The notes beneath the pieces were generated by a model. That model searched no databases and was not told the DNA's origin. It saw only the letters and a list, made by a program, of their open reading frames with translations. A stretch of 64,000 nt of DNA from an uncultured bacterium (GTDB lineage: Bacteria; Latescibacterota; MWCZ01): contig CAZEAI010000008.1 of assembly GCA_964510105.1 (NCBI GenBank), positions 6,923 to 70,922 of the forward strand. The letters run 5' to 3'. Both the position numbers and the translations under genes were made by a program. Of this stretch, positions 34,893 through 56,045 are shown piece by piece. Each line of letters starts with the position of its first letter. Within the stretch, counting starts at the first letter, position 1.

Positions 34893-35405
34893 ATGTCCCT
34901 CCGCCGCCTGTTCCCGTTCGTCGTCCTCGCGCTCTTGACATCACGCTCCCACGGCCAGGAGGCTTTTCGCGCCGCCCCGGTGGAGGAGCAGATCTCGATT
35001 GTGCAGGACATCGCGATCGCTGAACACACTCCTTCGATCAGAAATGCCTCCGTCACCAAAGACGGCCAGTACGTCGTTTCCCTGGACAACTACAACTACT
35101 ACAGCCTGTGGAGCCTCGGCGACGGCGCCCGGCTTCGCTACGAGTTCCTCGATTACGAGGACTACGAAGCGCAGGCGATGGCGATGTACCCGAACGGGTC
35201 TCATTTCGTCACCTTCGACACCCGATTCTCGGCCGAGACCCAGCGACCGGGCTTCGGCGTGCGTCAGTATCGACCCCACGACGGCAGTCTCGTTCGCACC
35301 CATTCGGGAGATTGGGGCGAACTCGCCGTCTTCGGAACGGTGTGGCGTGCCGCGGCCATCAGCGCCGACTGGCAGTATTTCGCCGGCGCGGTCAGGTCAA
35401 CGTAG
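34893..35405 (+). CDS. N-terminal fragment of a giant WD40/Fn3 T9SS cargo protein (signal peptide plus the first WD40 blades)
   Basis: AAGGAG RBS and signal peptide MSLRRLFPFVVLALLTSRSHG. The WD40-like motifs (TKDGQYVVSL, ISADWQYFAG) continue in the next segment in another frame. Confidence 0.5.
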   Translation: MSLRRLFPFVVLALLTSRSHGQEAFRAAPVEEQISIVQDIAIAEHTPSIRNASVTKDGQYVVSLDNYNYYSLWSLGDGARLRYEFLDYEDYEAQAMAMYPNGSHFVTFDTRFSAETQRPGFGVRQYRPHDGSLVRTHSGDWGELAVFGTVWRAAAISADWQYFAGAVRST

Positions 35406-42097: not shown

Positions 42098-42601
42098 ATG
42101 CGAACAAGGCTGGGGTACTGGATCTCCGCCGGGATCGTCGTCCTGCTCGCGGGATGCACCGCGAACCAGGATTCCACGATCAAGTCGAATGTCGAGCGGT
42201 ACCTGACTGAGAGCGCTCGAGCTGTTAACGCGCGAGACTGGGAGGCTTACGGAGAACTCTTCACCGAAGACCTGCTGATGTTCGCTCCGGGATTTCCCGG
42301 GACAAGGGGGCGGGACGCTCGTCTGGAGATGGTTCAGGGCATCATGGCAGCGTTCCCTGACGGTCGCGTGGATGGGCAGCGGGCGTTCGGCAAGGGCGAA
42401 TGGGCCTGCTTCCAGTTCGAATTCTCCGGCACAAACACTGGGCCGCTCGCAGCGGCTGACGGCAGCGAGATACCCGCCACCAACAAATCTGTCAAGTTCT
42501 CATACTGCATCGTTGCGCGGTACGAGGCAGGGCAGATCGCCGAACTCCATGAGTACTTCGATCAGATGGACTTGCTGACGCAGCTTGGCCTTGTGCCGTA
42601 G
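42098..42601 (+). CDS. SnoaL-like (ester-cyclase / NTF2-fold) lipoprotein
   Basis: Lipobox LLAGC, followed by the typical SnoaL block ...DWEAYGELFTEDLLMFAPGFPG.... Confidence 0.55.
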   Translation: MRTRLGYWISAGIVVLLAGCTANQDSTIKSNVERYLTESARAVNARDWEAYGELFTEDLLMFAPGFPGTRGRDARLEMVQGIMAAFPDGRVDGQRAFGKGEWACFQFEFSGTNTGPLAAADGSEIPATNKSVKFSYCIVARYEAGQIAELHEYFDQMDLLTQLGLVP

Positions 42602-42760: not shown

Positions 42761-43243
42761 ATGCGAGCGAGACAGACTTGCTGGATTGCCGTCGGGGTCG
42801 GCCTGATGTCCATGGGTTGCAGCGCGACGGGGATGGCGGACCGCGATGCTTTCGAGGCGGCAGCAAAGGAGTTGGCTCAGGACTACTCCGTGGCCGTGGA
42901 TAGTGGAGATGTGAATCTCTATGTCACCCATTTGGACGACAACGCGATATACATGGCGCCAGGCGCTCCGGAACACAGTGGGCGGGCGGCTGTCGGAAGA
43001 GCGTTGGGAGAGTGGTTCGCGGCAGTGAATTTCGAGGAATTCGCCGTCAACCTTGAAGAGTTCGAGGTGTTCGGTGATTTCGGCTACATCCGTGGCACGT
43101 ACTCCTGTCTCACGATCCCATGGGCAAGTGGGGACACAACTCGGTTTGAGGGCAAAGTCCTGAGCATCCTGAGACGGCAACCCGACGGTTCCTGGAGGAT
43201 CTACCGCGACTGCTTCAACTCGAACGGGCTTCCGGCTATCTGA
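42761..43243 (+). CDS. NTF2-like (DUF4440/SnoaL-type) lipoprotein
   Basis: Signal peptide with MSMGCS. The C-terminal ...RQPDGSWRIYRDCFNSN motif is shared with the 48597-51033 paralogues. Confidence 0.5.
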   Translation: MRARQTCWIAVGVGLMSMGCSATGMADRDAFEAAAKELAQDYSVAVDSGDVNLYVTHLDDNAIYMAPGAPEHSGRAAVGRALGEWFAAVNFEEFAVNLEEFEVFGDFGYIRGTYSCLTIPWASGDTTRFEGKVLSILRRQPDGSWRIYRDCFNSNGLPAI

Positions 43244-43452
43244 CGTTGGCGCCATACCGGCGCCGACGACGGCGAGCTGTCATGCGCACCGGGAGACGGA
43301 GACGCACCGGTCTTTACTACCAGCTATTCCTTAGTATATTACCCCCTGATGTCGATCGCTGAGCGGGATAGTTGTACACGGCCCGCCCGTTCCTAGTGCC
43401 CTCCGTAGGCGGGTGGTCCCGCGCACTGCCGGCGCCGCCCGAGGTGGTCGCA

Positions 43453-46400
43453 GTGGATACTCAACGGCGAGCAGACGACGCAACTCTGGTCGGGCGTTGC
43501 CTCGACGGTGACCGCGAGGCGTTTGCCGGGCTCGTGCAGGCCTACGAGCAGACCGCCCTCGCGACGGCGATGGCGTACGTCGGCAACTCGGACGACGCGG
43601 GAGACGTCACCCAGGACGCCTTCGTCACGGCCTTCACGTCGATCGGCGATCTACGAAACCCGGCGCAGTTCGGGAGCTGGTTCCGACGAATCGTGCAGCG
43701 GCACGCGCTTGAGCGTGTACGCGATGCCGGACGAAGCACCCCTCTCACCGACGAGCACGGCGCCACACCCCCGCCCGCGTCGCCGGATATGCCGCAGACA
43801 TCGTTCTCCGCCGACGTGTCGTCCGCCGTGCAACAGCTTCCGATGGCATACCGCGACATCGTCCTGATGTATTACCTCAACGACTTGTCCTACCGCGGCA
43901 TCGCGGAGATCATGGACCTGCCGGAGTCGACGATACGGAGCCGTCTGCGAACGGCACGGCGAAGGCTGAAAGGCGTCCTGCCCAGACAAGGCCGCAATCG
44001 CGGCGCCGACGACCACGGGCAGATCCGCTCGGCGATTCAGAAGTCGGTAGGCAAGCGCCACTATCGCGACGCTCTCGAACGCCTCCTGTCGGCCGGAATG
44101 GAGCACATACGCGATACGCTCTCGGATGAGGAACAGGAGCTGTTCGGACGGAACGTCGAGACGATCCTCTCGCACGTAACCGGCATCGAGGACGAAAGCC
44201 CGTGCAGAGCGGATTGGGGGGAGGCGCCCGACGTCGAGGGATTCGTCGGGCGCGCGGAGGAACTCGCGACGTTGCGCACGTGGATCGCGGACGAGCAGTC
44301 GCGCCTGATTGCCGTCATCGGTATGGGTGGAATCGGTAAGACAGCACTCGCGGCAAGAGCAGCCAGGATCGTCGCAGGCCAGTTCGAGTGCGTCTTCTGG
44401 CGATCGCTGGTGAACGGACCGCCGCTTTCGAATGTGCTCACTGAGTTGATCGGGCACCTTCTTGGCGAGTTCAGCGTGCCACGCTCCGATCGGATCGACG
44501 AGCAGATCCGACGCGTCATGGAGTACCTGCGGTCCCACCGCTGCCTCATCGTGTTGGATAACGTCGAGGGAATACTGGAGGCCGGCGCCGCCGGTCGCTT
44601 CCGCGAGGGATACGAAGGTTACGGGCAACTGATACGACAGTTCAGCGAGTGCCCTCACCAGAGCACGGCGCTGCTCACCAGCCGTGAGCGGCCGCGCGAT
44701 TTCGCTCTTGTGGAGCGTGTTGACGGAACCGAACTGCACGCCTTCGAGCTGAAAGGCTTGGATGGCGACGCCGCACGGGAGCTTCCGGGCCTGGAGAGCA
44801 TTGCAGCATCGGACGACGACTGGCAGACGCTGGTGGAGCATTTTTCCGGCAATCCGCTCGCTTTGAGGCTGGTGGCGGAGAAGGTGTTGGACCTGTTCGG
44901 GGGAGATCTGTCACACTTCCTCGCGGCCGGACTTCCGCTGTTCGACGACGTGCGCGACATACTCGATCGGCAGTTCGAACGCCTGACGCCGCTTGAGCGT
45001 GACGTGATGTGCTGGCTGGCGATCGTACGGGAGCCGGTAACTCCGGATGAGATCCGCGTACGACTGGTTCCGGCCGTGTCGGCGAGTGAGCTTCTCCAGA
45101 TCATGCACTCCCTCAGTCTGCGAACGCTCGTGGAGCACCGTTCGGGTACGTTCCTTCTGCAGAACGTCATCACCGAGTACGTTACCGACCGAATCGTCGA
45201 ACAGGCGGCCGGCGAAATCGCGGCGGGCCTGGTGACTCTCCTGGATACCCACCCGCTGACGATGGCAACGGCGAGACCCAACGTGAGAGACGCACAGCGG
45301 CGTCTGATACTGTCGCCCGTCGGCCTTCGCGTGGTGAACGAATTCGGCCCGAACGCCGTGGAAGAAGCGCTGAAGGCAACCGTCGATTCGCTTCGTGCCG
45401 GCGACGCGCTCCCGAACGGGTATGCCGCGGGCAACTACTTCGACCTCGTGGCTCATCTCTTCGGCGAGGTGGTCGGCTGGGATTTCTCGCACCTCTCGGT
45501 CCGTCAGGCGGACCTGACCAGTGCACACGTGCACGACACCAGCTTCGCGCACTCCGTGTTCGGCGAATGCGCGCTTCAGCACGCACATGGCAACGTGGAT
45601 TGGGCTGAATTCAGTCCCAGCGGCCGGGAGATAGCGATCTCAGCGTTCGGACGACTGGAAACGCGATCGTTCCCGGGCCTGGAGCCGCTCAGCGCCGATT
45701 GCACGGAGGGTGTACGGTCGGCGACGTACACGACAGACGGTCGCCTCCTCGCCATCCGTCTTGAGCACGCGGAGAGTTGGCCGGAAGCAGCCGATCGCTA
45801 CTCGCCTCGACGGATCGATGGTGGGACCGGTAGCAGATGGCATAACTCTGTGATGGATGTTGCATCTGGAGCGGCCCTGTTGGAATACGATGTGCAGTGG
45901 ATGAATATCGGCTGCCTATGCCCTTCCGGCAGGCTACTCGCCCACGACGACATCGACTTCACCATCAAGGTGCTCAACCTGGAGAACAAGGAGTGCGTCG
46001 CGACGCTGCCGAGCAGCGTAGGCCGCCTCTCTCAGCACGGACTGGCATTCCACCCGGACGGTGAGATGCTGGCAACCTGTGGCTACGACGGATCGGTCAG
46101 GGTGTGGGATGTTCGGTCAGCCGAATGCAAATGGACGTCCGAGCAACAAGGATGTAGCAGAATCGCATTCACCCCGGACGGCGACAAGCTTGCTATCTCC
46201 GATACCCACAGCCATCGGACTCGGTTCATGGACGCCGATTGCGGTACGTGTCGAGGCACCATGGAGGCGGCTCTGCTGTCGTTCCATCCCGACGGCAGAA
46301 CGGTGGCCGGTCACGATTCGGCCAACCGCATCGTGATCTGCGCCGTCGATACCTCCGATCTCGCGGCGACATTCCGAAGCGAAACGGGGATGGTGACGGC

Positions 46401-48279
46401 CGCCTCGTTCAGCCCGGATGGACGGTACTTGTTGGTGGCGGAGGAGCCGGGCCTGCTCCGCGTCTGGGATCTGGAGACGGGGCAAAGCCTGAATTCGTCA
46501 CAGGGAAACCGGCACGCGAACGAGCCGAGGGCCGATATCGACCCAACCGGAAGACTTGTGGCCGTAGGTGAGGAAGCGGGCCAGGTGCATGTCTGGGACG
46601 TATCGGCGTCGCGCGTCGTCACGACACTGCGTGAGCGAGAGGCCCTGCTATCTGCGCACGAGTTCACGCCCTCGGCAAGCTCTCCGTCTGAACGCGACTG
46701 GCTCAACATAGATGAAGAGTGGAGAGTCTACGATGAAGACTCGGAACTATGCATCAACACAGCGGATGGGAGTCTGCGACGACAGACGCACCGAATTGCC
46801 TCGCCTGTACGCGACGTGGTTTTCAGTCCGGACGGATCGCTTGTGTCGGGCGCGGATCCGGCGGACCGGGGATTCAGGGCATGGCACGTGAGCACGGGAG
46901 AGTGCGTTGGCTGGTACAACAGATCGCATGCCGTCCGCTATGTCTGTTTCGCGCCGAATAGCTCGCTCGTCGCCTGTCACACGACGGATGACGAGGCCGA
47001 ATATCCGACAACGATCTGGAATTGTCGTACCGGGCAGCTCGTTCGTGGGCTCCCGTGTCACTCGTGGCATATGGCTTTCACCCCGGACGGCAGAACCTTC
47101 GCGGGAGCGACCTACCGCGACGGGGAATTCGTCATGAACCTGTGGGACGTTTCCTCGGGTGAGCGACGGCTGTCCCTCGAAGCGCGGGAGTGGATAACGT
47201 ATTTCTGGCTCTACAGCGTGACCGGATTCAGCGCGGACGGGAGACTGCTGGGTACGTGTCTGGGCGGCCCGAACTACAGGGGAGCCATCGTGTGGGATAC
47301 GGCTGTAGCTGAGCCGCTGCTGAAGGTGCCCGGCAGCAAATACCTCAGCTTCCTCGAGAACGACCGAGTGTTGGTTCGCGGCGGGATGGAAGGCCAGACG
47401 GTGTCGGTCGTGGACGTCCGAACGGGTGAACAGATGGACTCGTGGAACACCAGTATCACCGGCCCGACCAGAGCATTCAGCTCCGACGGCAGGATGATTG
47501 TCACGGCATCGGAGCATCAGCCGGGTGTATCGGTCTGGAATGTCGACGATGGATCCCACGTGTGCACGATTCCCCGGATTCGTCCGTACGATGGAACGAA
47601 CATCGCGCACGCGGACGGGCTGACGCCTGCCGAAACAGCGACACTGAAACGCCTGGGCGCCATCGAGCAAGAGGTGGGGCTCTCCCCTGCCGAGCCCCAG
47701 TCGCCGCCGCGTTCGTCGCCACGGGACCCTCTCGAACGACGATTCACCGCATGGGCAGGGGGACCGAGGGCGCTCGTGTCGGTCGTCTGCGTCGAAGCGG
47801 CCGATCGAACCATCCTGTCCGACCGGCTTGAGGGTAACCAGCGCGTCGAACGCATGCGCGCCCGGCACGCACAACGGCTGCGGGATCTCACCGGTCGGCA
47901 CCACGGGCTGACAATCTGCGACGACGGCGCGAGCGCTTCCATCGCTTTCCACACACCCACGGAGGCGCTGGAGTTCACGCGAGAGTGCCGTCGAGAGACA
48001 GAAGCGGACGGGATCAGGCTGCTTACCGGCATCCATGTGGAATCGATCAGGATCGGGAGCGAGGACCCCTTCGACCACCTTGCCACACACCTTACCGGGA
48101 TAGTCGAGAAGGCGAATTCGTCCGGGGTCTGGGCGAGCGACGAATACAAGGACCTCCTTGCGAGATTCGGTCCGAACGGCCTGCCGGAGCCGGTGTGGAT
48201 CATGCACCCCAACTGCCAGCTCAAAGGGCTTCCGGGGAAGCACAAGCTATGGTCGCTGACCGACGACGCGCCGGCCTGA
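43453..48279 (+). CDS. ECF sigma-70 factor fused to an NB-ARC/STAND NTPase, WD40 repeats and a C-terminal class-III-cyclase-homology-like domain
   Basis: Sigma-70 region 2 (AFAGLVQAYEQTALATAMAYVGNSDDAGDVTQDAFVTAF) and region 4 (LPMAYRDIVLMYYLNDLSYRGIAEIMDLPESTIRSRLRTARRRLKG). Then FVGRAEELATLRTW...IAVIGMGGIGKTALA...CLIVLDNVE...GNPLALRLV, the NB-ARC P-loop/GxP motifs. Then at least 10 WD40 units (FHPDGEMLATCGYDGSVRVWDV...). Then a roughly 170-aa C-terminal domain matching the cyclase pattern (...IRLLTGIHVESIRIG...VWIMHPNCQLKGLPGKHKLWSL). This is one uninterrupted frame. The start is set at the GTG at 43453 after AGGTGG; the exact start is uncertain (43372-43453). Confidence 0.65.
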   Translation: MDTQRRADDATLVGRCLDGDREAFAGLVQAYEQTALATAMAYVGNSDDAGDVTQDAFVTAFTSIGDLRNPAQFGSWFRRIVQRHALERVRDAGRSTPLTDEHGATPPPASPDMPQTSFSADVSSAVQQLPMAYRDIVLMYYLNDLSYRGIAEIMDLPESTIRSRLRTARRRLKGVLPRQGRNRGADDHGQIRSAIQKSVGKRHYRDALERLLSAGMEHIRDTLSDEEQELFGRNVETILSHVTGIEDESPCRADWGEAPDVEGFVGRAEELATLRTWIADEQSRLIAVIGMGGIGKTALAARAARIVAGQFECVFWRSLVNGPPLSNVLTELIGHLLGEFSVPRSDRIDEQIRRVMEYLRSHRCLIVLDNVEGILEAGAAGRFREGYEGYGQLIRQFSECPHQSTALLTSRERPRDFALVERVDGTELHAFELKGLDGDAARELPGLESIAASDDDWQTLVEHFSGNPLALRLVAEKVLDLFGGDLSHFLAAGLPLFDDVRDILDRQFERLTPLERDVMCWLAIVREPVTPDEIRVRLVPAVSASELLQIMHSLSLRTLVEHRSGTFLLQNVITEYVTDRIVEQAAGEIAAGLVTLLDTHPLTMATARPNVRDAQRRLILSPVGLRVVNEFGPNAVEEALKATVDSLRAGDALPNGYAAGNYFDLVAHLFGEVVGWDFSHLSVRQADLTSAHVHDTSFAHSVFGECALQHAHGNVDWAEFSPSGREIAISAFGRLETRSFPGLEPLSADCTEGVRSATYTTDGRLLAIRLEHAESWPEAADRYSPRRIDGGTGSRWHNSVMDVASGAALLEYDVQWMNIGCLCPSGRLLAHDDIDFTIKVLNLENKECVATLPSSVGRLSQHGLAFHPDGEMLATCGYDGSVRVWDVRSAECKWTSEQQGCSRIAFTPDGDKLAISDTHSHRTRFMDADCGTCRGTMEAALLSFHPDGRTVAGHDSANRIVICAVDTSDLAATFRSETGMVTAASFSPDGRYLLVAEEPGLLRVWDLETGQSLNSSQGNRHANEPRADIDPTGRLVAVGEEAGQVHVWDVSASRVVTTLREREALLSAHEFTPSASSPSERDWLNIDEEWRVYDEDSELCINTADGSLRRQTHRIASPVRDVVFSPDGSLVSGADPADRGFRAWHVSTGECVGWYNRSHAVRYVCFAPNSSLVACHTTDDEAEYPTTIWNCRTGQLVRGLPCHSWHMAFTPDGRTFAGATYRDGEFVMNLWDVSSGERRLSLEAREWITYFWLYSVTGFSADGRLLGTCLGGPNYRGAIVWDTAVAEPLLKVPGSKYLSFLENDRVLVRGGMEGQTVSVVDVRTGEQMDSWNTSITGPTRAFSSDGRMIVTASEHQPGVSVWNVDDGSHVCTIPRIRPYDGTNIAHADGLTPAETATLKRLGAIEQEVGLSPAEPQSPPRSSPRDPLERRFTAWAGGPRALVSVVCVEAADRTILSDRLEGNQRVERMRARHAQRLRDLTGRHHGLTICDDGASASIAFHTPTEALEFTRECRRETEADGIRLLTGIHVESIRIGSEDPFDHLATHLTGIVEKANSSGVWASDEYKDLLARFGPNGLPEPVWIMHPNCQLKGLPGKHKLWSLTDDAPA

Positions 48280-48390
48280 CGCAATTCTCAGTCGCCGCGC
48301 GACCGACAAGTCGCACGGGCTCGGCACGATCCATGAACTCCTCGCGGCGCGTCGCCCCACCACGGGGATCGTCAGGCGGTATTTTCGCAG

Positions 48391-48495
48391 TGCGGTAAGC
48401 GACTTACGCACCTTTCGCGCTATACCCCCCTGGGGGTCGGAATGCCTCGACATGAGCACATCCAGCCACCGTACTCCATCTAGTAGGCAGCAGCG
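48391..48495. repeat. about 100-bp conserved intergenic element A with a CCCCCC-T-GGGGG palindrome
   Basis: About 75% identical to 51271-51360 (GCGACTTACGCA..TTTCGC.CTATACCCCCC(T)GGGGGGTCG.AATGCC...CATCC...CCATC). Confidence 0.5.
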
Positions 48496-48596
48496 GGCAG
48501 AGCAGCGGTGATTCGTATCGCCGTGAGAAGCCTCGTGTTGTACCGATTCGAACCAGATCAACTGGACACCCGGCACACACGCGGAGGAGGAGAGCA

Positions 48597-49085
48597 ATGC
48601 GCACGAAATCAGTGTGCTGGATCGCCAGCGGCATCATCGCCACCATCGTTGTTCTCGCGGGCTGCGGCGACGGCTCGGCGGACGCGTCGGGCGATGTGGA
48701 CTTCGGCGCAACTCTTGCGGAACATGCGGCGAAGTATGCCGCGGCGTGCAACGCGGGCGATGCGGACGCCTACTGCGCCTTACTCGACGAGAGTTTCACT
48801 CAGTTGCCACCAGGCGCTCCACCATTCATTGGGAAGGCAGCCGTCAGGGATGCGATAGGAGGGTTTTTCGAGGCATACGATCTCGAGGATTTCACGATCG
48901 AAACACAAACGTACGAGGTGTCCAGGGAATTTGCATGGAATTGGGGCACGTATTCCTATCGCACGGCTCCAATGGGTACGACCGATTTCGCTCCGTACGA
49001 GGGCAAGTACCTGAGCGTACTGAAGAAGCAGCCTGACGGTACCTGGTTGTTCTACATTGGCTGCTTCAACTCGAACACGCATTAG
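48597..49085 (+). CDS. NTF2-like (DUF4440/SnoaL-type) lipoprotein, paralogue 1
   Basis: GGAGGAGG RBS and lipobox VLAGCGDG. Conserved blocks ...AAACNAGDADAY...FAWNWGTYS...KKQPDGTWLFYIGCFNSN. Confidence 0.6.
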   Translation: MRTKSVCWIASGIIATIVVLAGCGDGSADASGDVDFGATLAEHAAKYAAACNAGDADAYCALLDESFTQLPPGAPPFIGKAAVRDAIGGFFEAYDLEDFTIETQTYEVSREFAWNWGTYSYRTAPMGTTDFAPYEGKYLSVLKKQPDGTWLFYIGCFNSNTH

Positions 49086-49248
49086 GGTAGATCGCGCCGT
49101 CGGCGATAGCACCAACGAAACGGGCGGGTCTCCTGAGATGGCAGCCCCGTACCGCCTGCACGGCCGACAGCGATCTGCGGAAACCGGAGCGACTGGGGAG
49201 TTCGTTCCGGCGCATCGTTCAACAGCTCCTCGAAGGGGAGGAAGAGCA

Positions 49249-49746
49249 ATGCGATCACGACTGACGCGTTGGATTATCAGCCGTATTGCGGGCAGCAGCG
49301 ACGACGCGACCACAGTCCCGACGACGGCGGAGACCGAGGGCTTCGAGACGGGCCCCGAGGAATTTGTGCGGGCCTTTGTGGCAGCGTGTAAGGCTGGGGA
49401 TCTGGATACCTACATGGCCCTTGTCGACAAGGACTTCGTCAGGATGCCCCCGGATGCTCCACCGATCGTCGGAGAAGCGGCGATCAGGGAGTGGGCCAAA
49501 GGTTTCTTCGAGACATTGGAACTTGAGGAATTCACGGTCGATAATCGCGAATCCCACGTGTTCGGCGATTTTGCCTGGTTCTGGGGCACGCACTACATTC
49601 GCTCGGCTGTCAAGGGACAGGAACCCTCGGTATGCGAGCATATCGACGGCAAGCACCTCACTGTTCTGAAGAAACAGGCTGATGGCTCCTGGGCGGTGAT
49701 CGCCGACTGCTTCAATGGAAACGCACCTCCTACTGTGCCAAACTGA
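49249..49746 (+). CDS. NTF2-like protein, paralogue 2 (lipobox Cys replaced: IAGSSDD)
   Basis: Same fold blocks as paralogue 1. The start is at MRSRLTRWIISRIAGSSDD, preceded by the GGGGAGGAAGAG motif shared by all paralogues. Confidence 0.55.
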   Translation: MRSRLTRWIISRIAGSSDDATTVPTTAETEGFETGPEEFVRAFVAACKAGDLDTYMALVDKDFVRMPPDAPPIVGEAAIREWAKGFFETLELEEFTVDNRESHVFGDFAWFWGTHYIRSAVKGQEPSVCEHIDGKHLTVLKKQADGSWAVIADCFNGNAPPTVPN

Positions 49747-49885
49747 CGCGGTGGGGGGGCATCCGAACGCGCCGGGCGGGCTGCCGTGCGGGTAGCTCCG
49801 GCCGCTCTCAACGTCGCACGGCGGTCAAGCGATCCACAGAGGCCTGCGCACCGTTCAGCAGCGTCTCGAAGAGGAGGAAGAGTAA

Positions 49886-50391
49886 TGCGAACGCAACTAG
49901 CCCGTTGGGTCACCAGCGGCATCATCGTCGTTCTCGCGGGCTGCGGCGACGACAGGGACAGCGGCCCAACGGCGGCCGAGATCGAAGCCTTCGAGGCGGC
50001 TGAGGTGACGCTTCCGCAAGCGTATGCCGCGGCGTGTAACGCGGGGGATGCGGACGCGTACGTCGCTCTTATCGATGACGACTACGTTCAACTGCCCCCT
50101 GATGCTCCACCGGTCATTGGGAAACCGGCCATGCTCGAGCGAATCAGACTGATGTTCGGGGCGTATGATTTCGAAGAATTCACCGTCGATAACCGCAAGG
50201 CGGAGATGTTTGGCGACTGGGGTTGGGTCTGGGGTACGCACTCCTATCTCCTGGCACCCCAGGGCACGACCGAATTCACAAAGTACGACGGCAAGCACCT
50301 GAGCATTCTGAAGCGGCAAGCCGACGGTTCCTGGCTGTTCTACGGCGACGCCTTCAACTACAACGCTCCCGCGATGAAACTGGCGCCCTGA
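49886..50391 (+). CDS. NTF2-like lipoprotein, paralogue 3
   Basis: MRTQLARWVTSGIIVVLAGCGDD lipobox. Conserved ...AAACNAGDADAY...KRQADGSWLFYGDAFNYN. Confidence 0.6.
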
Positions 50392-50523
50392 GCGAGCGTA
50401 CCGAAAGGCCGGACGCGACTCAGTGCACGGGTGGTCCCGCCCGTTCTCGACGCTGAGGCGGAGGGCGGGTCGCCCATACGACCGTCGCATCGGTTGGCTG
50501 CGCACTCGAAGGGGAGGAAGAGA

Positions 50524-51033
50524 ATGCGATCCCGACTGACGCGTTGGATTACCAGCCGTGTTGCGGGCAGCAGCGACGACACCACCGCCGTCCCGACAGC
50601 GGCGGATGTCGAGACTTTCGAGGCATTCCTTGCGAGGCTTGCGGTGGGTGCGGATGGGTATGCCGCGGCGTGTAACGCCGGGGATATCGACGCCTTCTGC
50701 GCCCTACTCGATGAGGACTTCACTCAGATGCCGCCAGACCAGCCACCATGCGTTGGGAAAGCGGCCGTTAGGGAGCGAATGGCAGGACTGTTCGCGGCAG
50801 TTGATCTCGAGGACTTCACGATCAACCACCAGGATTGGGCCATGTTTGGCGATTTTGCCTTCCTGTGGGGCACGTACTCCTGTCGCACGGCGCTGCAGGG
50901 GCAGACACCCCCGGTATGGAGTTCGTTCGACGGCAAGTACCTGAGTGTCGTGAAGAAGCAGACTGATGGTTCCTGGCTGGCGTACCTCGACTGCTTCAAC
51001 TCCAACGTTCCTGGAGCGGAATTGGCGCTGTGA
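50524..51033 (+). CDS. NTF2-like protein, paralogue 4 (lipobox Cys replaced: VAGSSDD)
   Basis: MRSRLTRWITSRVAGSSDD... and conserved NTF2-like blocks, with the same upstream motif. Confidence 0.55.
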   Translation: MRSRLTRWITSRVAGSSDDTTAVPTAADVETFEAFLARLAVGADGYAAACNAGDIDAFCALLDEDFTQMPPDQPPCVGKAAVRERMAGLFAAVDLEDFTINHQDWAMFGDFAFLWGTYSCRTALQGQTPPVWSSFDGKYLSVVKKQTDGSWLAYLDCFNSNVPGAELAL

Positions 51034-51270
51034 GCGAGCGTACCGACAGACCGGGGGGCTCCCGCGCATGGAGCCCCCCCGGTCTCCGTACCGCCCTTAC
51101 GCACGCGAGCCTGCCTGGCGCCGCATTCACCCGGCGTGCTCGCGGCGCCGTGACACCTCCTCCAACACCGCCTGACGCACTGATCGCGCCGCGTCGACGC
51201 GAGCTGCGGATTCCTCACGAACTGTCACGCCTCAATGAGAACCTCAGGGTTCCGTTCGCGCAGTCCAGTG

Positions 51271-51360
51271 TGCGACTTACGCAGATTTCGCCTATACCCC
51301 CCGGGGGGTCGCAATGCCCCGGTTCGGCCACATCCGGCTGTCCCCATCCATCTAACAGGC
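51271..51360. repeat. about 100-bp conserved intergenic element B (perfect CCCCCCGGGGGG palindrome)
   Basis: Paralogous to 48391-48495. Located between the last NTF2-like gene and the cyclase-homology ORF. Confidence 0.5.
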
Positions 51361-51437
51361 AAGCAATCACGGTCAACTGCCCGGACCGTGGGAGTCACAT
51401 CGCATCAGGGCGGGAAGATCGAGTTAGGGAGGCATCG

Positions 51438-52052
51438 ATGGCCTGCGATCGCGAATCGGGCGATCACGGATCGGGCGAAAACGACCTCAGCGTCGAGCCC
51501 GTGTCGAGCGGAATCGCGCTAGTCTCACTAGTAGCGACACTCCCCGCCGACCCGTCGGTCCTCGTCGCCCGGCTCGAAGGGAACGAGCGAATCGAGCGGG
51601 CACGCCGGGCGGTGGCGTCCAGGGCGAGCGACGTGATCGGGAATCACAGTGGATGGCAGGTCGCCGGTAACGGCGAATCGATCACGGCTGCCTTCGGAGC
51701 GCCATCGGAAGCGCTTGACTTCGCGCTTGAGCTGCAGTTCGACACCGGTTCGCGGCTCATCAGGCTGCGTGTGGCGGCGCACGTTGACGTCGTGGCAGAT
51801 CGGGGATCCGGCGTCGCCTGCGGCGACGTGGGACCGTACGACGACATGCTCGCCTTCACGCGGCAGTTGCTGCGGAGGAACGGCGGCACGGAGGTGTGGA
51901 CGAGCAACGATTTCAAGACTCAGATCGACCACCACGGCACAACGCGTCAACGAGAACTCGACTGGATGATGCGACCAAACTGCGTGCTCGACGGGTACGA
52001 GGGACGGCACATCCTCTGGTCGGTGAATAGCCGCGAGGCGGCGATTCCTTAG
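51438..52052 (+). CDS. stand-alone class-III nucleotidyl-cyclase-homology-like domain protein (degenerate)
   Basis: GGGAGG RBS. 205 aa. ...IALVSLVATLPADPSVLVARLEGNERIERARR...IRLRVAAHVDVVADRGSGVACGDV...DWMMRPNCVLDGYEGRHILWSV parallels the cyclase blocks (VTVLFADIVGFT / RIGIHTGxVV / xELKGK). It is paralogous to the C-terminal domain of the ECF-STAND protein. Confidence 0.45.
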   Translation: MACDRESGDHGSGENDLSVEPVSSGIALVSLVATLPADPSVLVARLEGNERIERARRAVASRASDVIGNHSGWQVAGNGESITAAFGAPSEALDFALELQFDTGSRLIRLRVAAHVDVVADRGSGVACGDVGPYDDMLAFTRQLLRRNGGTEVWTSNDFKTQIDHHGTTRQRELDWMMRPNCVLDGYEGRHILWSVNSREAAIP

Positions 52053-52167
52053 GCAGTTCGCTCTGCGAACTGCAAAACGAATGCGAGCGCCACGAGCGTT
52101 CGCCGCGCGGGCAGCCCCGCTCCACCCGTTCCTCCTCGGGGCTGCCTGCCATGGAAAGGAGTTCATC
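52053..52167 (+). promoter_or_regulatory. conserved intergenic element, copy 1: terminator-like hairpin, conserved spacer, then leader hairpin, upstream of a T9SS cargo gene
   Basis: GCAGTTCGC-tct-GCGAACTGC hairpin immediately after the stop codon. A conserved ACGAAxGCGAGCGCCACGxGCGTTCGCC spacer follows. A second hairpin GGCAGCCCCG-n17-CGGGGCTGCC sits 20 nt before the RBS. Confidence 0.5.
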
Positions 52168-53517
52168 ATGAACATGCGCCGCACCATCCTTCTGTGTCTG
52201 GGGATGCTGCTCTGCGCGGGAGTCCGAATCGCACACTCAGCCCCCGCCATCGCACCCGACTGGATACAAAGCGGCCATTCGAGCTATGTGTTATGTGTGG
52301 CGATAGACTCGGTTGGGAATACCATCGTTACGGGGAGCGCCGACCGCACGATTAAGGTGTGGGACCTGTCCGGCGGCAGGTTGCTGCGGACGCTCCCCGT
52401 TCCCGACAGTGGCGACGAGGGTCACACGGCCGGCGTACAAAGCGTGGCGATCAGCCCTGACGGGAGCACGATCGTCTCGGGAGACTGGGACCACACTACG
52501 AAGGTGTGGAACCTGTCCGACGGCAGGCTGCTACGCACGCTCATCGGCGGCAGAGGCGATGCGTGGAGCGTAGCTTTCGCCCCGGATGGTAACACGGTTG
52601 TCTCGGGCGGCTTCGATGCCACGATCAAGGTGTGGCGGCTGTCCGACGGCACCGTGCTGCGCATACTCAGAGGCCACACGAGCTACGTGACCAGCGTGGC
52701 AGTCAACGGGAATACTGTCGTCTCGGGGAGTGCCGATCGTACGGTCAGAGTGTGGGATCTGTCCGACGGCACGCTGTTGCGGACCCTCACTGCTTCAAGC
52801 TGCGCGGGCGCCGGTCATACCGCTTGCGTGGCCAGTGTGGCGATCAGCCCCGATGGGGACAGGATCGTCTCGGGGAGCGCCGACGGCACGATCAAGGTAT
52901 GGAATCCGTCCGACGGCACGCTGCTGCGAACACTCCCAGTCCCGGGCGGCGGCGACGCGGCACACACGGGTGGTGTCCGAAGCGTGGCGATCAGCCCCGA
53001 CGGGAACAGGATCGCGTCGGGAGGTCTCGACGCCACGATCAAGCTGTGGAGTCTAACCGAAGGCTCGCTGGAGAAGACCCTCGCCGCCCATGGGAACACG
53101 GTGTGGAGCGTGGCGATTAGCTCCGATGGCGGATCCATCGTGTCAGGTGGAGGAGACGCACGGGTGATCCGATGGGGTGTGTATCCGCCGCTCAAGACGC
53201 TGACACCGCCTAGTGCGGTAGAAGGGAATCCACGGCAAGCTCGTGCGACCTTGTCACAGAACGTCCCGAACCCGTTTAACCCATCGACGTCCATCCCGTA
53301 CTCGCTTGCGTCGGACGGCGTTGTGCGGCTCGAGTTGTACGACGCGATCGGCCGGCCGGTGCGGACGTTGCTGGCCGACTACCGCCACGCGGGAGAGCAC
53401 TCCGTCGTGTGGGACGGTCGCGACGACGCGGGTCGCGCGGTAGCGAGTGGCGTCTACGTTGTACGGATGGTGGCAAGCGGCTTCGTCACAGCGCGGAAGG
53501 TGACACTGCTGCGATAG
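52168..53517 (+). CDS. secreted WD40-repeat protein with a T9SS (Por) C-terminal sorting domain
   Basis: Signal peptide MNMRRTILLCLGMLLCAGVRIAHS. About 8 WD40 units (TIKVWDLSDGTLLRTL...). C-terminal NVPNPFNPSTSIPYSLASDGVVRLELYDAIGRPVRTL... T9SS CTD. Confidence 0.7.
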   Translation: MNMRRTILLCLGMLLCAGVRIAHSAPAIAPDWIQSGHSSYVLCVAIDSVGNTIVTGSADRTIKVWDLSGGRLLRTLPVPDSGDEGHTAGVQSVAISPDGSTIVSGDWDHTTKVWNLSDGRLLRTLIGGRGDAWSVAFAPDGNTVVSGGFDATIKVWRLSDGTVLRILRGHTSYVTSVAVNGNTVVSGSADRTVRVWDLSDGTLLRTLTASSCAGAGHTACVASVAISPDGDRIVSGSADGTIKVWNPSDGTLLRTLPVPGGGDAAHTGGVRSVAISPDGNRIASGGLDATIKLWSLTEGSLEKTLAAHGNTVWSVAISSDGGSIVSGGGDARVIRWGVYPPLKTLTPPSAVEGNPRQARATLSQNVPNPFNPSTSIPYSLASDGVVRLELYDAIGRPVRTLLADYRHAGEHSVVWDGRDDAGRAVASGVYVVRMVASGFVTARKVTLLR

Positions 53518-53645: not shown

Positions 53646-56045
53646 ATGATACGCACACTGACAACGCTCACAGCCACGCTGTTCGCGCTCGGCCCGCTCG
53701 CTGGGGCAAATACGGACGTCAGCGGCGAAATCACGACTACCACGTGGACCGCCGCAATGGGCCCCTATCAAGTCACCGACACGATCACCGTCCCGACGGG
53801 CAACACGCTCACCATCGAGCCAAGCGTGGATGTGCTCTTCGACGCCGACGTGCCGTTCGTCGTCGAGGGCGCGTTGGATGCAGTCGGCACCGAAGTCGAC
53901 AGCATCCGGTTCATCGCGGGCACCGCCGACGAGTGGGGCGGCATCCGCTTCAACGGCGGCGACTCAAGCACGATCCACTACGCGCGCGTCAGCGATGCAT
54001 TCACCCACGCGCCCTCTCCGTTTGTTGGTGGCGAAGGAGGCGGCATCCACCTGTTGAGCTCATCGCTCGGTCTGGCACACTCTGTCGTAAGCGGCAACAC
54101 AGTCGAGGGCTACGGAGGTGGTCTGTTCGCCGACAGCGCCACCGTCACACTCGACTCATGCGCGATCACGGGCAACGCGGCGAAGAAGGCCATGGCTGGC
54201 GGCGACGGCGGTGGCGTTTATGCGGTCGAGTCGACCGTTTCGTTAACTGGATGCGCGGTGTCTCAGGACAGCGCCGCTGGCGCTGGAGGCGGCGTACACG
54301 GCCGGAACTCGACGCTGTCTCTCGAGGCGTGCGACATCCAAGACAACGCCAGCCTGTCCACTGGCGGAGGGCTCCACCTCGTTGGGGGCACCGTCGGTAT
54401 GACGGTATGCAGTGTCTCGAACAACGACGCCGGAGGCACAGGAGGTGGGCTATACACCACTGGGGTCGACATGGTCCTGGCTGACTGCGACGTATCGGGT
54501 AACGCATCAGGCGCGTCTGGGGGCGGGCTGTGCGTTGCGGGAAGCGGAAGCGGTCTCACCCTGACCGACTGCACTGTGTCAGCGAACGTGGCTGGTCTCA
54601 ACGGCGGCGGAATGGTTCTCAACGGGGTTACTGCGACGCTCGCAGGCTGTGCCGTCGATGGCAACTCGGCAGGTACGGCGCCGGTCGCAGGCGGCGGCTC
54701 CGGCAATGGCGGGGGATTTTCCGCAAGGGGTGGGGCGATCACGCTCTACAACTCCACGGTGAACCGCAACACGGCAGGCAAATGGGGTGGGGGGTTCTAC
54801 ACCGGCGGCACGGCGGTCACTATGGGTGCCTGCGAGCTCCGGGGAAATGCGTCCTGGGGAGGGGCCCCGACCGATTTCTTCGGCGGCTCGACCGTTACGA
54901 TGACGAACTGCCTCGTGGCCGGGAATACTGCCTTTCTGCCAAGCGCAGGCCTGGATTTCCATGATGCCTCCGCGACGCTGGTGAATTGCACCGTCGTCGA
55001 CAATCGGTCGCTGGGCGAACCCGGTTGTACCCCGCCGGACAGCGTATGGGGAATCATAGGCGCCGCCGCCAGCAGCCCGGACCAGACGATCACACTCATC
55101 AACTCCATCATCTGGGGACACAGTGGGGACCACGGTCTGGACTACTGGCTATGCGGAGCAGAAACGGGCGTCTGCCCGGGGATCTGCATCCCAGGACCTT
55201 TCCCGCCTGGCGCGCCGACGACTGCGACCTACTGCGCCGCCGGGGCCGTCAATGTGGAAGGGTGGTGGTCGAGCGTGGGGAACGTCAACGCCGACCCGAT
55301 GTTTGTCGACACGATCGCGTACGCGCTGCTGCCGAGCTCACCGTGCATCGACACGGGGTCACATTACATCCTCGATGAGGACGGCTCCCCGTCGGACATG
55401 GGGTACACCGGCGGAGGGCGGTACGGGCGGTGCCAGGTGTCACTCGTGCCGGACACGCTGTACCGCGACTCCACTGACTTCGTTCGCGTCAGGAACGTCG
55501 GCGACGCGCCTCTCGGCGTGTTCGAGCCGGACCTTCCTGATTCGTTTGTGACGGACATGGTCTTCCCGCAAGCCGTTGAGCCGGACAGCACGCTCTACAT
55601 TCCGGTGACGTATACCCAGCGCGGCTACCATGAGAAGACCGCCGTCATCCATACTTCTGATCCGTGGACACCGGATACGGTGGTGCTGCTGAAGGGCAAG
55701 TGGCCCGTGGCGATAGCAGCAATCGCTCGCCCACCGGCGTTCGCGCTGTCGCCGAACGTCCCGAATCCGTTCAACCCGGCGACGCGCATCCCATATGCGC
55801 TCGCGTCGGACGGGGATGTGCGGCTCGTGCTGTACAACACCCTCGGCCAGCGCGTGCGTACGGTCGTGGACGAATATCGAAGCGCGGGCGAACACTCCGT
55901 CGTGTGGAATGGGCGCGACGACGCGGATCGGCCCGCGGCGAGCGGGGTGTACATCGTGCGGCTGACTCACACTGGGGCGAATCGGAACGATTCGCGGACG
56001 AACTCGAACGCAGTGAGAGTTCGCAGGGTGACGCTGCTGCGATAG
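53646..56045 (+). CDS. secreted right-handed parallel beta-helix (Pmp-like) repeat protein with a T9SS C-terminal sorting domain
   Basis: Signal peptide MIRTLTTLTATLFALGPLAGA. Dozens of GGG[LV]x / NxAxxGGG repeats of about 22-25 aa. C-terminal NVPNPFNPATRIPYALASDGDVRLVLYNTLGQRVRTV... CTD. Confidence 0.65.
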   Translation: MIRTLTTLTATLFALGPLAGANTDVSGEITTTTWTAAMGPYQVTDTITVPTGNTLTIEPSVDVLFDADVPFVVEGALDAVGTEVDSIRFIAGTADEWGGIRFNGGDSSTIHYARVSDAFTHAPSPFVGGEGGGIHLLSSSLGLAHSVVSGNTVEGYGGGLFADSATVTLDSCAITGNAAKKAMAGGDGGGVYAVESTVSLTGCAVSQDSAAGAGGGVHGRNSTLSLEACDIQDNASLSTGGGLHLVGGTVGMTVCSVSNNDAGGTGGGLYTTGVDMVLADCDVSGNASGASGGGLCVAGSGSGLTLTDCTVSANVAGLNGGGMVLNGVTATLAGCAVDGNSAGTAPVAGGGSGNGGGFSARGGAITLYNSTVNRNTAGKWGGGFYTGGTAVTMGACELRGNASWGGAPTDFFGGSTVTMTNCLVAGNTAFLPSAGLDFHDASATLVNCTVVDNRSLGEPGCTPPDSVWGIIGAAASSPDQTITLINSIIWGHSGDHGLDYWLCGAETGVCPGICIPGPFPPGAPTTATYCAAGAVNVEGWWSSVGNVNADPMFVDTIAYALLPSSPCIDTGSHYILDEDGSPSDMGYTGGGRYGRCQVSLVPDTLYRDSTDFVRVRNVGDAPLGVFEPDLPDSFVTDMVFPQAVEPDSTLYIPVTYTQRGYHEKTAVIHTSDPWTPDTVVLLKGKWPVAIAAIARPPAFALSPNVPNPFNPATRIPYALASDGDVRLVLYNTLGQRVRTVVDEYRSAGEHSVVWNGRDDADRPAASGVYIVRLTHTGANRNDSRTNSNAVRVRRVTLLR

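Follow-up and report, generated by a model that had tools for sequence, protein, structure and literature searches.

What are four tandem paralogues of an NTF2-like gene, alternating between forms with and without a lipoprotein signal, doing beside the gene of a large STAND-class transcription regulator, and do array and regulator belong together? Hardly any of the very numerous DUF4440/NTF2-like proteins has an assigned function, and the triggers of large bacterial STAND (NLR-like) transcription regulators are mostly unknown. A recurrent neighbourhood of the two, as described below, offers both families a concrete hypothesis: the regulator may control the NTF2-like genes, or their products may deliver its signal. 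The relevant features of the window (the whole 64-kb stretch of DNA analysed here) are the following.

42098-42601, plus strand: P5, SnoaL-type (PF07366) NTF2-fold lipoprotein of 167 aa, lipobox LAGC, signal peptide MRTRLGYWISAGIVVLLAGC
42761-43243, plus strand: P6, DUF4440 lipoprotein paralogue of 160 aa, lipobox SMGC
43372-48279, plus strand: cytoplasmic STAND regulator of 1635 aa, with ECF sigma (regions 2 and 4), NB-ARC, WD40 and divergent cyclase-homology domains (Pfam, NCBIfam); hereafter ECF-STAND
48386-48489, plus strand: upstream copy of a direct repeat, containing TATACCCCCCTGGGGG, 72-73% identical to 51259-51361
48597-49085, plus strand: P1, DUF4440 lipoprotein of 162 aa (LAGC)
49207-49248, plus strand: conserved leader of P2, including a GGAGG ribosome-binding site (repeat family D7; exact 26-mer)
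49249-49746, plus strand: P2, signal-less DUF4440 paralogue of 165 aa, N-terminus MRSRLTRWIISRIAGSSDD, predicted cytoplasmic
49843-49884, plus strand: conserved leader of P3 (repeat comparison)
49885-50391, plus strand: P3, DUF4440 lipoprotein of 168 aa (LAGC)
50482-50523, plus strand: conserved leader of P4, with a 1-nt deletion relative to P2 and P3
50524-51033, plus strand: P4, signal-less DUF4440 paralogue of 169 aa, N-terminus MRSRLTRWITSRVAGSSDD, predicted cytoplasmic
51044-51089, plus strand: G+C-rich hairpin after P4, likely end of the transcription unit
51259-51361, plus strand: downstream copy of the direct repeat, upstream of g204, paired with 48386-48489
51438-52052, plus strand: g204, 204 aa, free-standing paralogue of the C-terminal cyclase-homology-like domain of ECF-STAND (35% identity, BLASTP E 8e-34)

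The first-pass annotation had described a co-oriented four-gene NTF2-like array at 48597-51033 and, upstream of the ECF-STAND gene, a further two genes for NTF2-fold lipoproteins. Both descriptions hold, with P1-P4 being four consecutive plus-strand genes and P5 and P6 being recognised by Pfam and by their lipoboxes. No further family member was found in the 64-kb window beyond P1-P6, and comparison loci amounting to 1.37 Mb contained just one. At least 12 contigs, drawn from about 10 independent metagenome assemblies, carry the array at 99.9-100% identity, and the exact P3 sequence occurs on 12 contigs. The Cys-less forms of P2 and P4 are therefore not the sequencing variants that would have refuted the first description, and a sequencing or assembly artefact was rejected. 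One source sample of the array is a marine water-column sample (PMC12220078), on which ground a sponge-symbiont origin, guessed from the many WD40 genes, was also rejected. Searches of genome and metagenome contigs using the four-paralogue alignment as query found no relatives. Plasmid tblastn for annotated contexts gave nothing with the lipoprotein of locus L184 (see below) and, with P3, a single weak match in an unannotated Gemmatirosa kalamazoonensis record.

That these genes are tandem NTF2-fold paralogues is agreed upon by Pfam, PDB profile matching and AlphaFold/Foldseek. P1-P4 and P6 score 35-47 bits for DUF4440 (PF14534; gathering cut-off 25.2) and 36-49 bits for SnoaL_2 (PF12680; gathering cut-off 27), and P5 reaches 76 bits (E 2e-21) for SnoaL PF07366 (cut-off 28.4). 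The family profile matched 3HX8 at E 1e-30 in PDB searches, and the AlphaFold model of P2 (pLDDT 87.6; element order H-H-E-H-E-E-E-E) is disordered over residues 1-25, the remainder forming an NTF2 cone, an alpha+beta fold with three helices against a curved antiparallel sheet, whose best Foldseek matches are the NTF2-like cones 3HX8, 3D9R and 3ROB (probability 1.00; TM-scores 0.8-0.9, normalised to target length). Nearly invariant residues, in P2 numbering, include D51, P67, P68, G75, G113, G134, K135, D145, G146, W148, D153 and N156, with W148 as the sole invariant residue of the family alignment. The family is large and mostly composed of lipoproteins, with 2183 matches at E <= 1e-8 and named members from Gemmatimonadota and Latescibacteria. 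Since a lipobox occurs in 92 of the 120 best homologues and a signal peptide in 14 more, export is the ancestral state.

Against this background, the four array members differ in their export signals. Lipoproteins were defined by a positively charged n-region and a hydrophobic h-region followed by a lipobox [LVI][ASTVI][GAS]C. P1, P3, P5 (LAGC) and P6 (SMGC) display these characters, and the lipobox previously noticed in P1 and P3 (...VVLAGC-GD) was confirmed. P2 and P4, which carry ...AGSSDD at the same place, had been described as having Cys-less signal peptides. The Cys is indeed replaced, but no signal peptide is left: the h-region is deleted, with 7 (compared with P3) to 10 (compared with P1) hydrophobic-core residues missing, and an Arg stands in the remnant. 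The best 9-residue Kyte-Doolittle mean is accordingly 0.8-0.9 in P2 and P4, versus 2.1-3.2 for the lipoproteins P1, P3, P5 and P6; homologues with signal peptides mostly reach 2.0-3.9. A twin-arginine motif was looked for in P2 and P4 and is absent, and their orthologues in strains L007 and L008 are likewise devoid of a lipoprotein signal. With the core deleted and the Cys changed to Ser, P2 and P4 are predicted to be without any signal peptide and hence cytoplasmic. The lipoprotein/Cys-less alternation is thus real and implies different localisations, as had been suggested. Phase-variable switching of signal peptides by 5' cassette exchange was considered and rejected, as the lipoprotein/cytoplasmic order is the same in every contig, and the divergent strain L007 keeps it too. 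The locus would be a clear natural example of a secreted protein re-targeted to the cytoplasm via deletion of its signal-peptide core.

The history of the array is older and less simple than first proposed. Amplification had been called recent, on an estimated 50-70% identity among P1-P4; the measured pairwise values are 42-56% for amino acids and 59-69% for nucleotides, and dS values of 0.63-1.05 (0.6-1.2 at the widest) indicate an old rather than recent event. P6 is 33-42% identical to P1-P4, and P5 only 20-27% identical to the other five genes, although the first 20 codons of P5 share 68-70% DNA identity with those of P1 and P3 (gene bodies, 42-46%). P1-P4 form one clade (100% bootstrap) in which the P4 core groups with P1 at 72-74% and P2 stands apart, which led us to reject an origin of P3-P4 by plain duplication of a P1-P2 unit. 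The upstream motif reported as common to the four genes is a leader of roughly 45 nt before P2, P3 and P4, of which P1 has only the GGAGG...AATGCG core. The sequence CTCGAAGRGGAGGAAGAGNAATGCGA is exact upstream of P2 and P3 and carries the 1-nt deletion upstream of P4, and none of 100 shuffles had two matches. Its conservation had been attributed to co-amplification with the genes, an explanation that the comparison of two strains does not support. When the window is compared with strain L007, P2 and P4 show 96-99% identity over their bodies but only 84-88% over the first 90 nt, which are mosaic: the first 57 nt of P2 in the window differ from P4 of strain L007 by one mismatch, and the first 13 codons of P4 are 92% identical to those of P2. 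Such 5' mosaics despite nearly identical bodies show ongoing gene conversion of the 5' ends, which the shared P2-P4 leader reflects. In effect, the 5' ends of the signal-less genes are kept alike by gene conversion.

The array persists across strains, and its variation bears on what may be the most ordinary explanation, namely a lineage-specific tandem expansion of lipoproteins in which P2 and P4 became export-less by deletion and are drifting to pseudogenes, the adjacency of ECF-STAND being coincidental. The large, mostly lipoprotein family and the tandem duplicates found elsewhere in it would be expected under this explanation, as would the relaxed dN/dS of all members (about 0.44-0.54). The P1 position (slot 1) is occupied by a different, P6-like gene in strains L007, L008 and L097, P6 itself grouping with the slot-1 gene of L007 (69% bootstrap); L097 also has a P5 orthologue (96% identical). 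In L007 and L008, the invariant codon W148 of P2 is an amber codon (TAG), and at least one cytoplasmic copy is therefore dispensable. Drift is contradicted by the pooled pN/pS of P2 and P4 between the window and strain L007, which at 0.46 lies below neutrality (binomial test, p = 0.007; the lipoprotein P3 has 0.54), and by the signal-less N-terminus, which is kept and exchanged between P2 and P4 with no decay. P2 and P4 are thus under purifying selection and maintained, not junk, as the preserved lipoprotein/cytoplasmic order of L007 also indicates.

The coincidence part of this explanation was confronted with other loci in which family members lie near STAND genes. In L184, a BTAD/NB-ARC/TPR regulator is divergent from a DUF4440 lipoprotein gene, which is followed by a signal-less, core-only DUF4440 gene of 134 aa. 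In L102, a BTAD/AAA_16/TPR regulator is divergent from a membrane-anchored DUF4440, followed by a 186-aa gene and a signal-less, core-only paralogue of 134 aa. L098 has BTAD-STAND and LuxR-STAND regulator genes with DUF4440 genes interspersed, two of them exported and one, of 137 aa, signal-less; the signal-less copy sits on the far side of the regulator. The signal-less genes of these three loci have no room for an upstream signal peptide, and the divergent regulator-NTF2 arrangement leaves gaps of 87-290 nt. With G+C contents of 59%, 53% and 67% and regulators only 29-37% identical, the three loci are unrelated. In the window, a STAND ATPase with a DNA-directed output also adjoins the genes, and an exported member is twice followed by a signal-less one on the same strand (P1-P2, P3-P4).

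Pair and STAND regulator occurred together in all three positive cases among the seven homologue contexts examined, a small sample, and neither occurred in the other four. This co-occurrence argues for specificity, and the four contexts with neither are also what a plain expansion would give. By tblastn, three of the six close-homologue contexts with DNA had STAND-ATPase matches, versus none of 80 distant-family loci (402 kb) and none of 80 malate-dehydrogenase comparison loci (1.37 Mb; best match 74% identity, no synteny), a rough enrichment test because the comparison loci come from other taxa, and one whose queries included the positive loci's own proteins. Searches by phmmer with STAND queries against long open frames likewise gave nothing in the distant-family or malate-dehydrogenase sets. 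An exported and signal-less pair beside STAND genes recurs in three loci unrelated to one another and is absent from all 160 comparison loci, which is hard to reconcile with coincidence, as is the fact that tandem duplicates away from STAND regulators, in the distant family, are lipoprotein plus lipoprotein. The pair in L102 consists of sisters (100% bootstrap), whereas the signal-less copies overall do not form one clade, indicating that exported/cytoplasmic pairing was repeatedly created or kept matched. A plain expansion is therefore regarded as tentative and rather unlikely, although the array would simply be one if the association were to fail in a genome-wide census. The link to the neighbouring STAND regulator, already suspected in the initial description, is supported by these loci, and finding the same pair beside STAND regulators in three unrelated bacteria makes it probable that the pair works with the regulator.

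How the regulator could do so in the window is constrained by its own features and those of its surroundings. The ECF-STAND gene ends 318 nt before P1. No membrane-like segment was found in its product, which means that P1, P3, P5 and P6 cannot touch it, and the direct lipoprotein-regulator contact that had been envisaged is not sustained. Its NB-ARC region is 27% identical over 401 aa (E 1e-13) to the BTAD-STAND regulator of L098. Its C-terminal domain and g204 both have homologues whose matched regions correspond to Pfam Guanylate_cyc; the g204 domain was identified via these homologues, the AlphaFold model from a two-sequence alignment reaching a pLDDT of only 35. Read from the sequences, g204 has Asn at the position aligning with D in the CDDG motif of the regulator, a residue that may correspond to the second of the metal-binding Asp residues in class III cyclases.

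Array and intergenic regions were also searched for control elements. The hairpin after P4 is the sole one with excess stability (z = -3.4; none of 200 shuffles as stable) and favours one operon; strain L007 has a hairpin at the same place whose stem differs in sequence (z = -2.2). The three intra-array intergenic regions showed no excess folding (z-scores -1.3 to +1.0), and conserved RNA structures in the leaders were rejected. The flanking direct repeat of roughly 105-170 nt (its alignment extends to about 170 nt) has two copies only in the window, without excess RNA folding. A search for ECF-type promoters (GGAAC-N16-17-CGT class) in front of P5, P6, the regulator, P1 and g204 came back empty, and a sigma-70 promoter scan gave nothing relevant. 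A polyketide or other biosynthetic cluster as context for the SnoaL-like genes was rejected, with no such genes near any of the four loci.

Taken together, these observations are best explained by two exported/cytoplasmic NTF2-like cassettes in a STAND-regulator module, controlled by the regulator and perhaps feeding back on it, a reading to which we give a probability of roughly one half. Each cassette would comprise an exported, lipid-anchored DUF4440 protein (P1, P3) and then an export-less cytoplasmic paralogue (P2, P4), and would belong to a recurrent neighbourhood in which such a pair lies beside a STAND-class transcription regulator that combines an ATPase (NB-ARC/AAA_16) with a repeat sensor and an output domain directed at DNA. 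The window regulator has an ECF sigma output and a WD40 sensor, and those of the other three loci have a SARP/BTAD output and a TPR sensor, with a LuxR-type regulator in addition at one of them. Most likely, the regulator switches on a co-transcribed P1-P4 operon, whose NTF2 cones, placed on either side of the inner membrane, may bind or convert one and the same small hydrophobic compound, and the cytoplasmic copy may report this compound back to the repeat domain of the regulator.

A more specific version of this model, in which the pair is a two-compartment sensor of a membrane-permeant hydrophobic molecule, appears doubtful. The lipoprotein would capture or convert the compound in the periplasm, and the cytoplasmic copy would bind the same compound and be recognised by the WD40/TPR repeats of the regulator, with ATP-dependent transcription activation as the result. 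Signal-peptide deletion in a duplicated lipoprotein gene would have re-created the pairing several times, and gene conversion would have kept it matched. If true, bacterial NLR-like transcription factors would have an adaptor-type input not described so far.

Two further explanations concern the regulator side. The NTF2-like proteins might be trans-acting co-sigma or anti-sigma partners, equivalent to the SnoaL-like extension of ECF41/ECF56. The genes do adjoin an ECF-type sigma domain, such extensions contact the sigma core in ECF41, ECF56, ECF294, ECF295 and ECF205 (PMC7826278, PMC7730460, PMC8999054), and only the cytoplasmic P2 and P4 weakly match NF006089/TIGR02960 (E 2e-4 to 1e-2). These matches, however, reach 15-21 bits where the cut-offs stand at 240-265 and span about 50 residues of shared fold. 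Of the six NTF2 proteins, four are extracytoplasmic lipoproteins, away from a regulator with no membrane segment, and the regulators of L098, L102 and L184 have SARP/BTAD or LuxR outputs and no sigma domain. Such a role is thus very unlikely, and the conserved partner is the STAND core or sensor, not sigma. Defence systems commonly contain STAND ATPases with WD40 or TPR sensors, and the array varies between strains with gene conversion, but an NLR-like anti-phage or conflict system with the paralogues as diversified effectors or immunity proteins is barely credible, given that the regulator, P1, P2, P5 and g204 match no PADLOC model (E <= 1e-3), that no toxin or nuclease domain lies nearby, that the N-terminal domain of the regulator is a transcription module, and that the array is invariant across about 10 samples.

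Returning to the cassette module, its likeness to known systems is partial. The activity of ECF41/ECF56-type sigma factors is regulated by a SnoaL_2-like extension fused to their C-terminus (PMC7826278, PMC7730460), and the window likewise associates an NTF2-fold module with an ECF-type sigma domain. Its six NTF2 genes are nonetheless separate open reading frames with most copies exported, and NB-ARC, WD40 and cyclase-like domains come after the sigma domain. Membership in this class, implied by the analogy initially drawn, is not supported, the proteins being free-standing and the other loci sigma-less; in the loci compared, the recurring partner is the STAND ATPase and not the sigma factor. 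Among sigma-70 accessory domains of cyanobacteria, NB-ARC accounts for 9% and WD40 for 8% (PMC11119718); the same combination of sigma-70/ECF, NB-ARC and WD40 is reported there, but the survey describes no partner genes. The best matches of the window NB-ARC region are cyanobacterial NB-ARC/WD40 proteins, with alignments covering only 60-73% of the query, and their N-terminal domain, where named by the source, is HTH XRE, MarR, CsgD or LuxR and never sigma. In the collection of papers searched, nothing relevant turned up on DUF4440 together with STAND, lipoproteins or sigma factors, nor any report linking large STAND transcription regulators to DUF4440 pairs.

The three external loci share their architecture with AfsR-type SARP/NB-ARC/TPR and MalT/LuxR-type (LAL) regulators, divergent from the NTF2 genes, and the NB-ARC region in the window is homologous to theirs. 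In the intergenic region of L184, GGAGCG occurs three times as a direct repeat, with spacings of 12 and 11 nt (shuffle frequency 1e-4); heptamer-like and about one helical turn apart, these repeats resemble, by analogy, a SARP binding site. Known examples of the AfsR and MalT types control antibiotic or maltose genes, whereas the window regulator combines an ECF sigma output with a WD40 sensor. As for the NTF2-like proteins, the DUF4440 or 'ketosteroid isomerase-like' structures 3HX8 (Mesorhizobium loti), 3D9R (Pectobacterium) and 3ROB (Planctomyces) have the same cone, but those are single soluble proteins without known function, whereas the family described here consists of lipoproteins and their signal-less sisters, set in an alternating array beside a STAND regulator.

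At this locus one giant regulator gene is flanked by six genes, all in the same orientation, that encode the small NTF2-fold proteins P1 to P6.

Genes of the locus (window coordinates, strand, description)
42098-42601, +, P5, small NTF2-fold protein gene with a SnoaL (PF07366) match
42761-43243, +, P6, small NTF2-fold protein gene with DUF4440 and SnoaL_2 matches
43372-48279, +, regulator of 1635 aa with sigma-70 regions 2 and 4 (ECF type), NB-ARC and WD40
48597-49085, +, P1, DUF4440 and SnoaL_2 matches
49249-49746, +, P2, DUF4440 and SnoaL_2 matches
49885-50391, +, P3, DUF4440 and SnoaL_2 matches
50524-51033, +, P4, DUF4440 and SnoaL_2 matches

The array described by the first-pass annotation, four consecutive NTF2-fold genes with P5 and P6 upstream of the ECF-STAND gene (STAND being a class of large ATPase regulators), is real. 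Its fold assignment also stands: all six proteins scored above the Pfam gathering cut-offs of NTF2-clan families, a family profile matched PDB 3HX8 (E 1e-30), the AlphaFold model of P2 is an NTF2 cone (pLDDT 87.6), and profile searches pointed to no other fold. The fold and family of P1-P6 are already known; the best Foldseek matches of the P2 model were 3HX8, 3D9R and 3ROB, none with an assigned function. Members of this DUF4440 subfamily have the C-terminal motif DGSW(K)xYRDCFNSN. A search of the regulator for a membrane segment found none.

Standard lipoprotein signal peptides, with a hydrophobic maximum of at least 2.1, are carried by P1, P3, P5 and P6. P2 and P4, by contrast, peak at 0.8-0.9: 7-10 residues are missing from their hydrophobic core, what is left of it has acquired an Arg, and Ser has replaced Cys. 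Rather than the Cys-less signal peptides reported earlier, they have no signal peptide at all and are predicted to be cytoplasmic; the first ~25 residues of P2 are disordered in the AlphaFold model. A lipobox is present in 92 of the 120 best homologues and a signal peptide in a further 14, so that export is the ancestral state and that of P2 and P4 a derived one. The Cys-less forms are not sequencing artefacts, as the same array recurs with 99.9-100% identity in at least 12 contigs from about 10 samples (JGI, ENA and Logan assemblies), one of them from the marine water column (PMC12220078); the source samples include the SUTE22-1 and SCRA20-1 series. No close genome was found among GTDB species representatives, where the best malate dehydrogenase match was 74% identical. 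The order lipoprotein, cytoplasmic, lipoprotein, cytoplasmic is kept in a divergent strain (contig L007, ~92% nucleotide identity to the window). The likeliest reading of this alternation is an exported/cytoplasmic cassette that is present twice and is tied to a STAND-class transcription regulator.

The genomic context of seven homologues, selected by similarity and length of available sequence alone, was examined. An exported/signal-less pair with a STAND regulator was present in three of them, whose regulator domains were confirmed with Pfam; both the pair and the STAND regulator were absent from the remaining four.

Unrelated loci combining a DUF4440 pair with a STAND regulator (BTAD and LuxR are regulator output domains)
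L184, 1022-aa BTAD/NB-ARC/TPR regulator divergent from a DUF4440 lipoprotein, with a 134-aa core-only DUF4440 76 nt beyond the latter
L102, 1248-aa BTAD/AAA_16/TPR regulator divergent from a membrane-anchored DUF4440, beyond which come first a 186-aa gene and next a 134-aa core-only paralogue
L098, two exported and one 137-aa core-only DUF4440, interleaved with BTAD/AAA_22/TPR and AAA_16/TPR/LuxR regulators

The core-only genes leave no space for a signal peptide. G+C content is 59%, 53% and 67% at L184, L102 and L098, respectively, against ~63% in the window; the three sets of regulators are mutually 29-37% identical, and the NB-ARC region in the window shows homology to its L098 counterpart (27% over 401 aa, E 1e-13). 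A single query set gave STAND-ATPase matches in three of six close-homologue contexts, in none of 80 distant-family loci (402 kb) and in none of the 80 malate-dehydrogenase loci used for comparison (1.37 Mb). Where the distant family has tandem duplicates, both copies are lipoproteins. Signal-less copies are not monophyletic, the L102 pair being sisters (100% bootstrap) and P1-P4 a single clade (100%); the exported/cytoplasmic pairing therefore arose repeatedly or stays matched. At L184 (4949-5109), three GGAGCG(C/A) direct repeats with 12- and 11-nt spacing (shuffle frequency 1e-4) lie ~80 nt upstream of the lipoprotein gene, in the intergenic region common with the divergent BTAD-STAND regulator. 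Their layout resembles that of SARP binding sites.

In the simplest mechanism, that of regulator and target, the regulator would activate the NTF2 operon, whose products would handle a small hydrophobic compound on either side of the membrane. More boldly, the cytoplasmic copy may present a putative ligand to the WD40 or TPR sensor. The main rival, to which we give substantial weight, sees an ordinary expansion of paralogues whose copies are decaying. Three points sustain this weight: the comparative sample is small, P2 is truncated in some strains, and a search of the locus recognised no promoter for the sigma domain. The truncation is a TGG to TAG change, in strains L007 and L008, at W148, the sole invariant residue of the family. 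Between the window and L007, pN/pS is 0.48 for P2, 0.54 for P3 and 0.45 for P4; the pooled value for P2 and P4 (0.46) is below neutrality (p = 0.007), indicating purifying selection on the signal-less genes like that on their lipoprotein sisters. The codons 3' of the TAG are still intact in both P2 orthologues (L007:897-1340 and L008:315-758).

The ECF41-like sigma partnership proposed at first is contradicted: scores fall below threshold, four of the six NTF2 proteins are extracytoplasmic, and what all four loci have in common is a STAND ATPase with a repeat sensor and not a sigma domain, which argues against such a partner. The first-pass interpretation survives in part, for a reason other than the one it gave, and some of its measurements needed correction. 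A defence-system reading has no support.

Protein identity among P1-P4 is 42-56% (50-70% had been claimed), nucleotide identity 59-69% and dS 0.63-1.05, values that make the amplification old, not recent. The upstream motif attributed to all four genes holds for P2, P3 and P4, with a common leader of ~45 nt including GGAGG; P1 has the ribosome-binding core only. Core-domain trees place P4 with P1 (72-74% bootstrap) and P2 apart, ruling out a simple duplicated pair; yet over their first 13 codons P2 and P4 share 92% identity. Between strains, identity is 96-99% in the gene bodies but falls to 84-88%, in a mosaic pattern, over the first 90 nt, the first 57 nt of the window P2 equalling L007 P4 with one mismatch. 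Thus the shared leader and N-terminus come from continuing 5' gene conversion instead of recent co-amplification. More weakly, the same holds for P5, a member of a different Pfam family (SnoaL PF07366): its signal-peptide codons (42098-42157) share 68-70% identity with the corresponding codons of P1 and P3 (48597-48665 and 49885-49944), against 42-46% for the mature parts. An ATGCG(A/C) start and a Trp at residue 8 occur in all six genes, and 5' ends appear homogenised across the whole locus. The first slot has turned over: in L007 (232-726), L008 (3-143) and L097 (15317-15670) it holds a gene only ~49% identical to P1 that clusters with P6 (the paralogue encoded upstream of the regulator), and was therefore replaced or converted. 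The L008 and L007 copies of P2 are identical in the C-terminal half, but 29 of their first 75 residues differ, a pattern that indicates between-strain recombination inside the gene.

A G+C-rich hairpin without a U-tract follows P4 (51044-51089) and is the only unusually stable one (z = -3.4). L007 has a hairpin at the matching place (2685-2730), its stem differing in sequence through compensatory changes. This suggests a single transcription unit ending at the hairpin, likely a terminator in an organism whose terminators depart from the E. coli pattern. An imperfect direct repeat (72-75% identity; 48386-48489 and 51259-51361) brackets the four-gene array, 108 nt upstream of P1 and 77 nt upstream of g204, the 204-aa gene after the array (51438-52052). 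It is alignable over ~170 nt (roughly 48382-48545 and 51255-51425); both copies contain TATACCCCCC(N)GGGGG and GCGACTTACGC, and no further copies occur in the window. The repeat may be a common promoter/operator, or the scar of an insertion or duplication that built the locus.

The regulator C-terminus (last ~190 residues, 47700-48279) and the free-standing g204 are paralogues (35% identity, E 8e-34), neither with a direct Pfam match. In HMMER homologues (416 cluster representatives), the stretch that aligns is Pfam Guanylate_cyc and usually follows WD40 domains, which identifies a divergent cyclase-homology domain of class III. Where the regulator has the first Asp of its CDDG motif, g204 has an Asn; we take this position to correspond to the second Asp that binds metal in class III cyclases. 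Large WD40 and fibronectin-III protein genes surround the locus (35108-39985, 40019-41527, 52081-53517 and 53646-56045). Several of their products end in an FlgD_ig-type domain, similar to the sorting domains of type IX secretion, and a signal-like segment is present at the N-terminus of at least one; apparently exported WD40 proteins are unusually concentrated beside a WD40-bearing regulator. The best 120 homologues of the regulator N-terminal 720 residues (43372-45531) show 60-73% query coverage and 37-46% identity; those with a source name are mostly cyanobacterial, and the N-terminal domains named are HTH XRE, MarR, CsgD and LuxR, with no sigma factor among them. A further protein that combines sigma, NB-ARC, WD40 and cyclase-like domains, P0251, was found at below 50% identity.

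The literature searched, with incomplete coverage, yielded no published link between DUF4440 and STAND regulators, or exported/cytoplasmic pairs, and the recurrent NTF2-like pairing beside STAND regulators represents a modestly novel, testable lead. Among known systems, sigma/NB-ARC/WD40 fusions are catalogued in cyanobacteria (PMC11119718), and SnoaL-like extensions are established for ECF41, ECF56, ECF294, ECF295 and ECF205 (PMC7826278).
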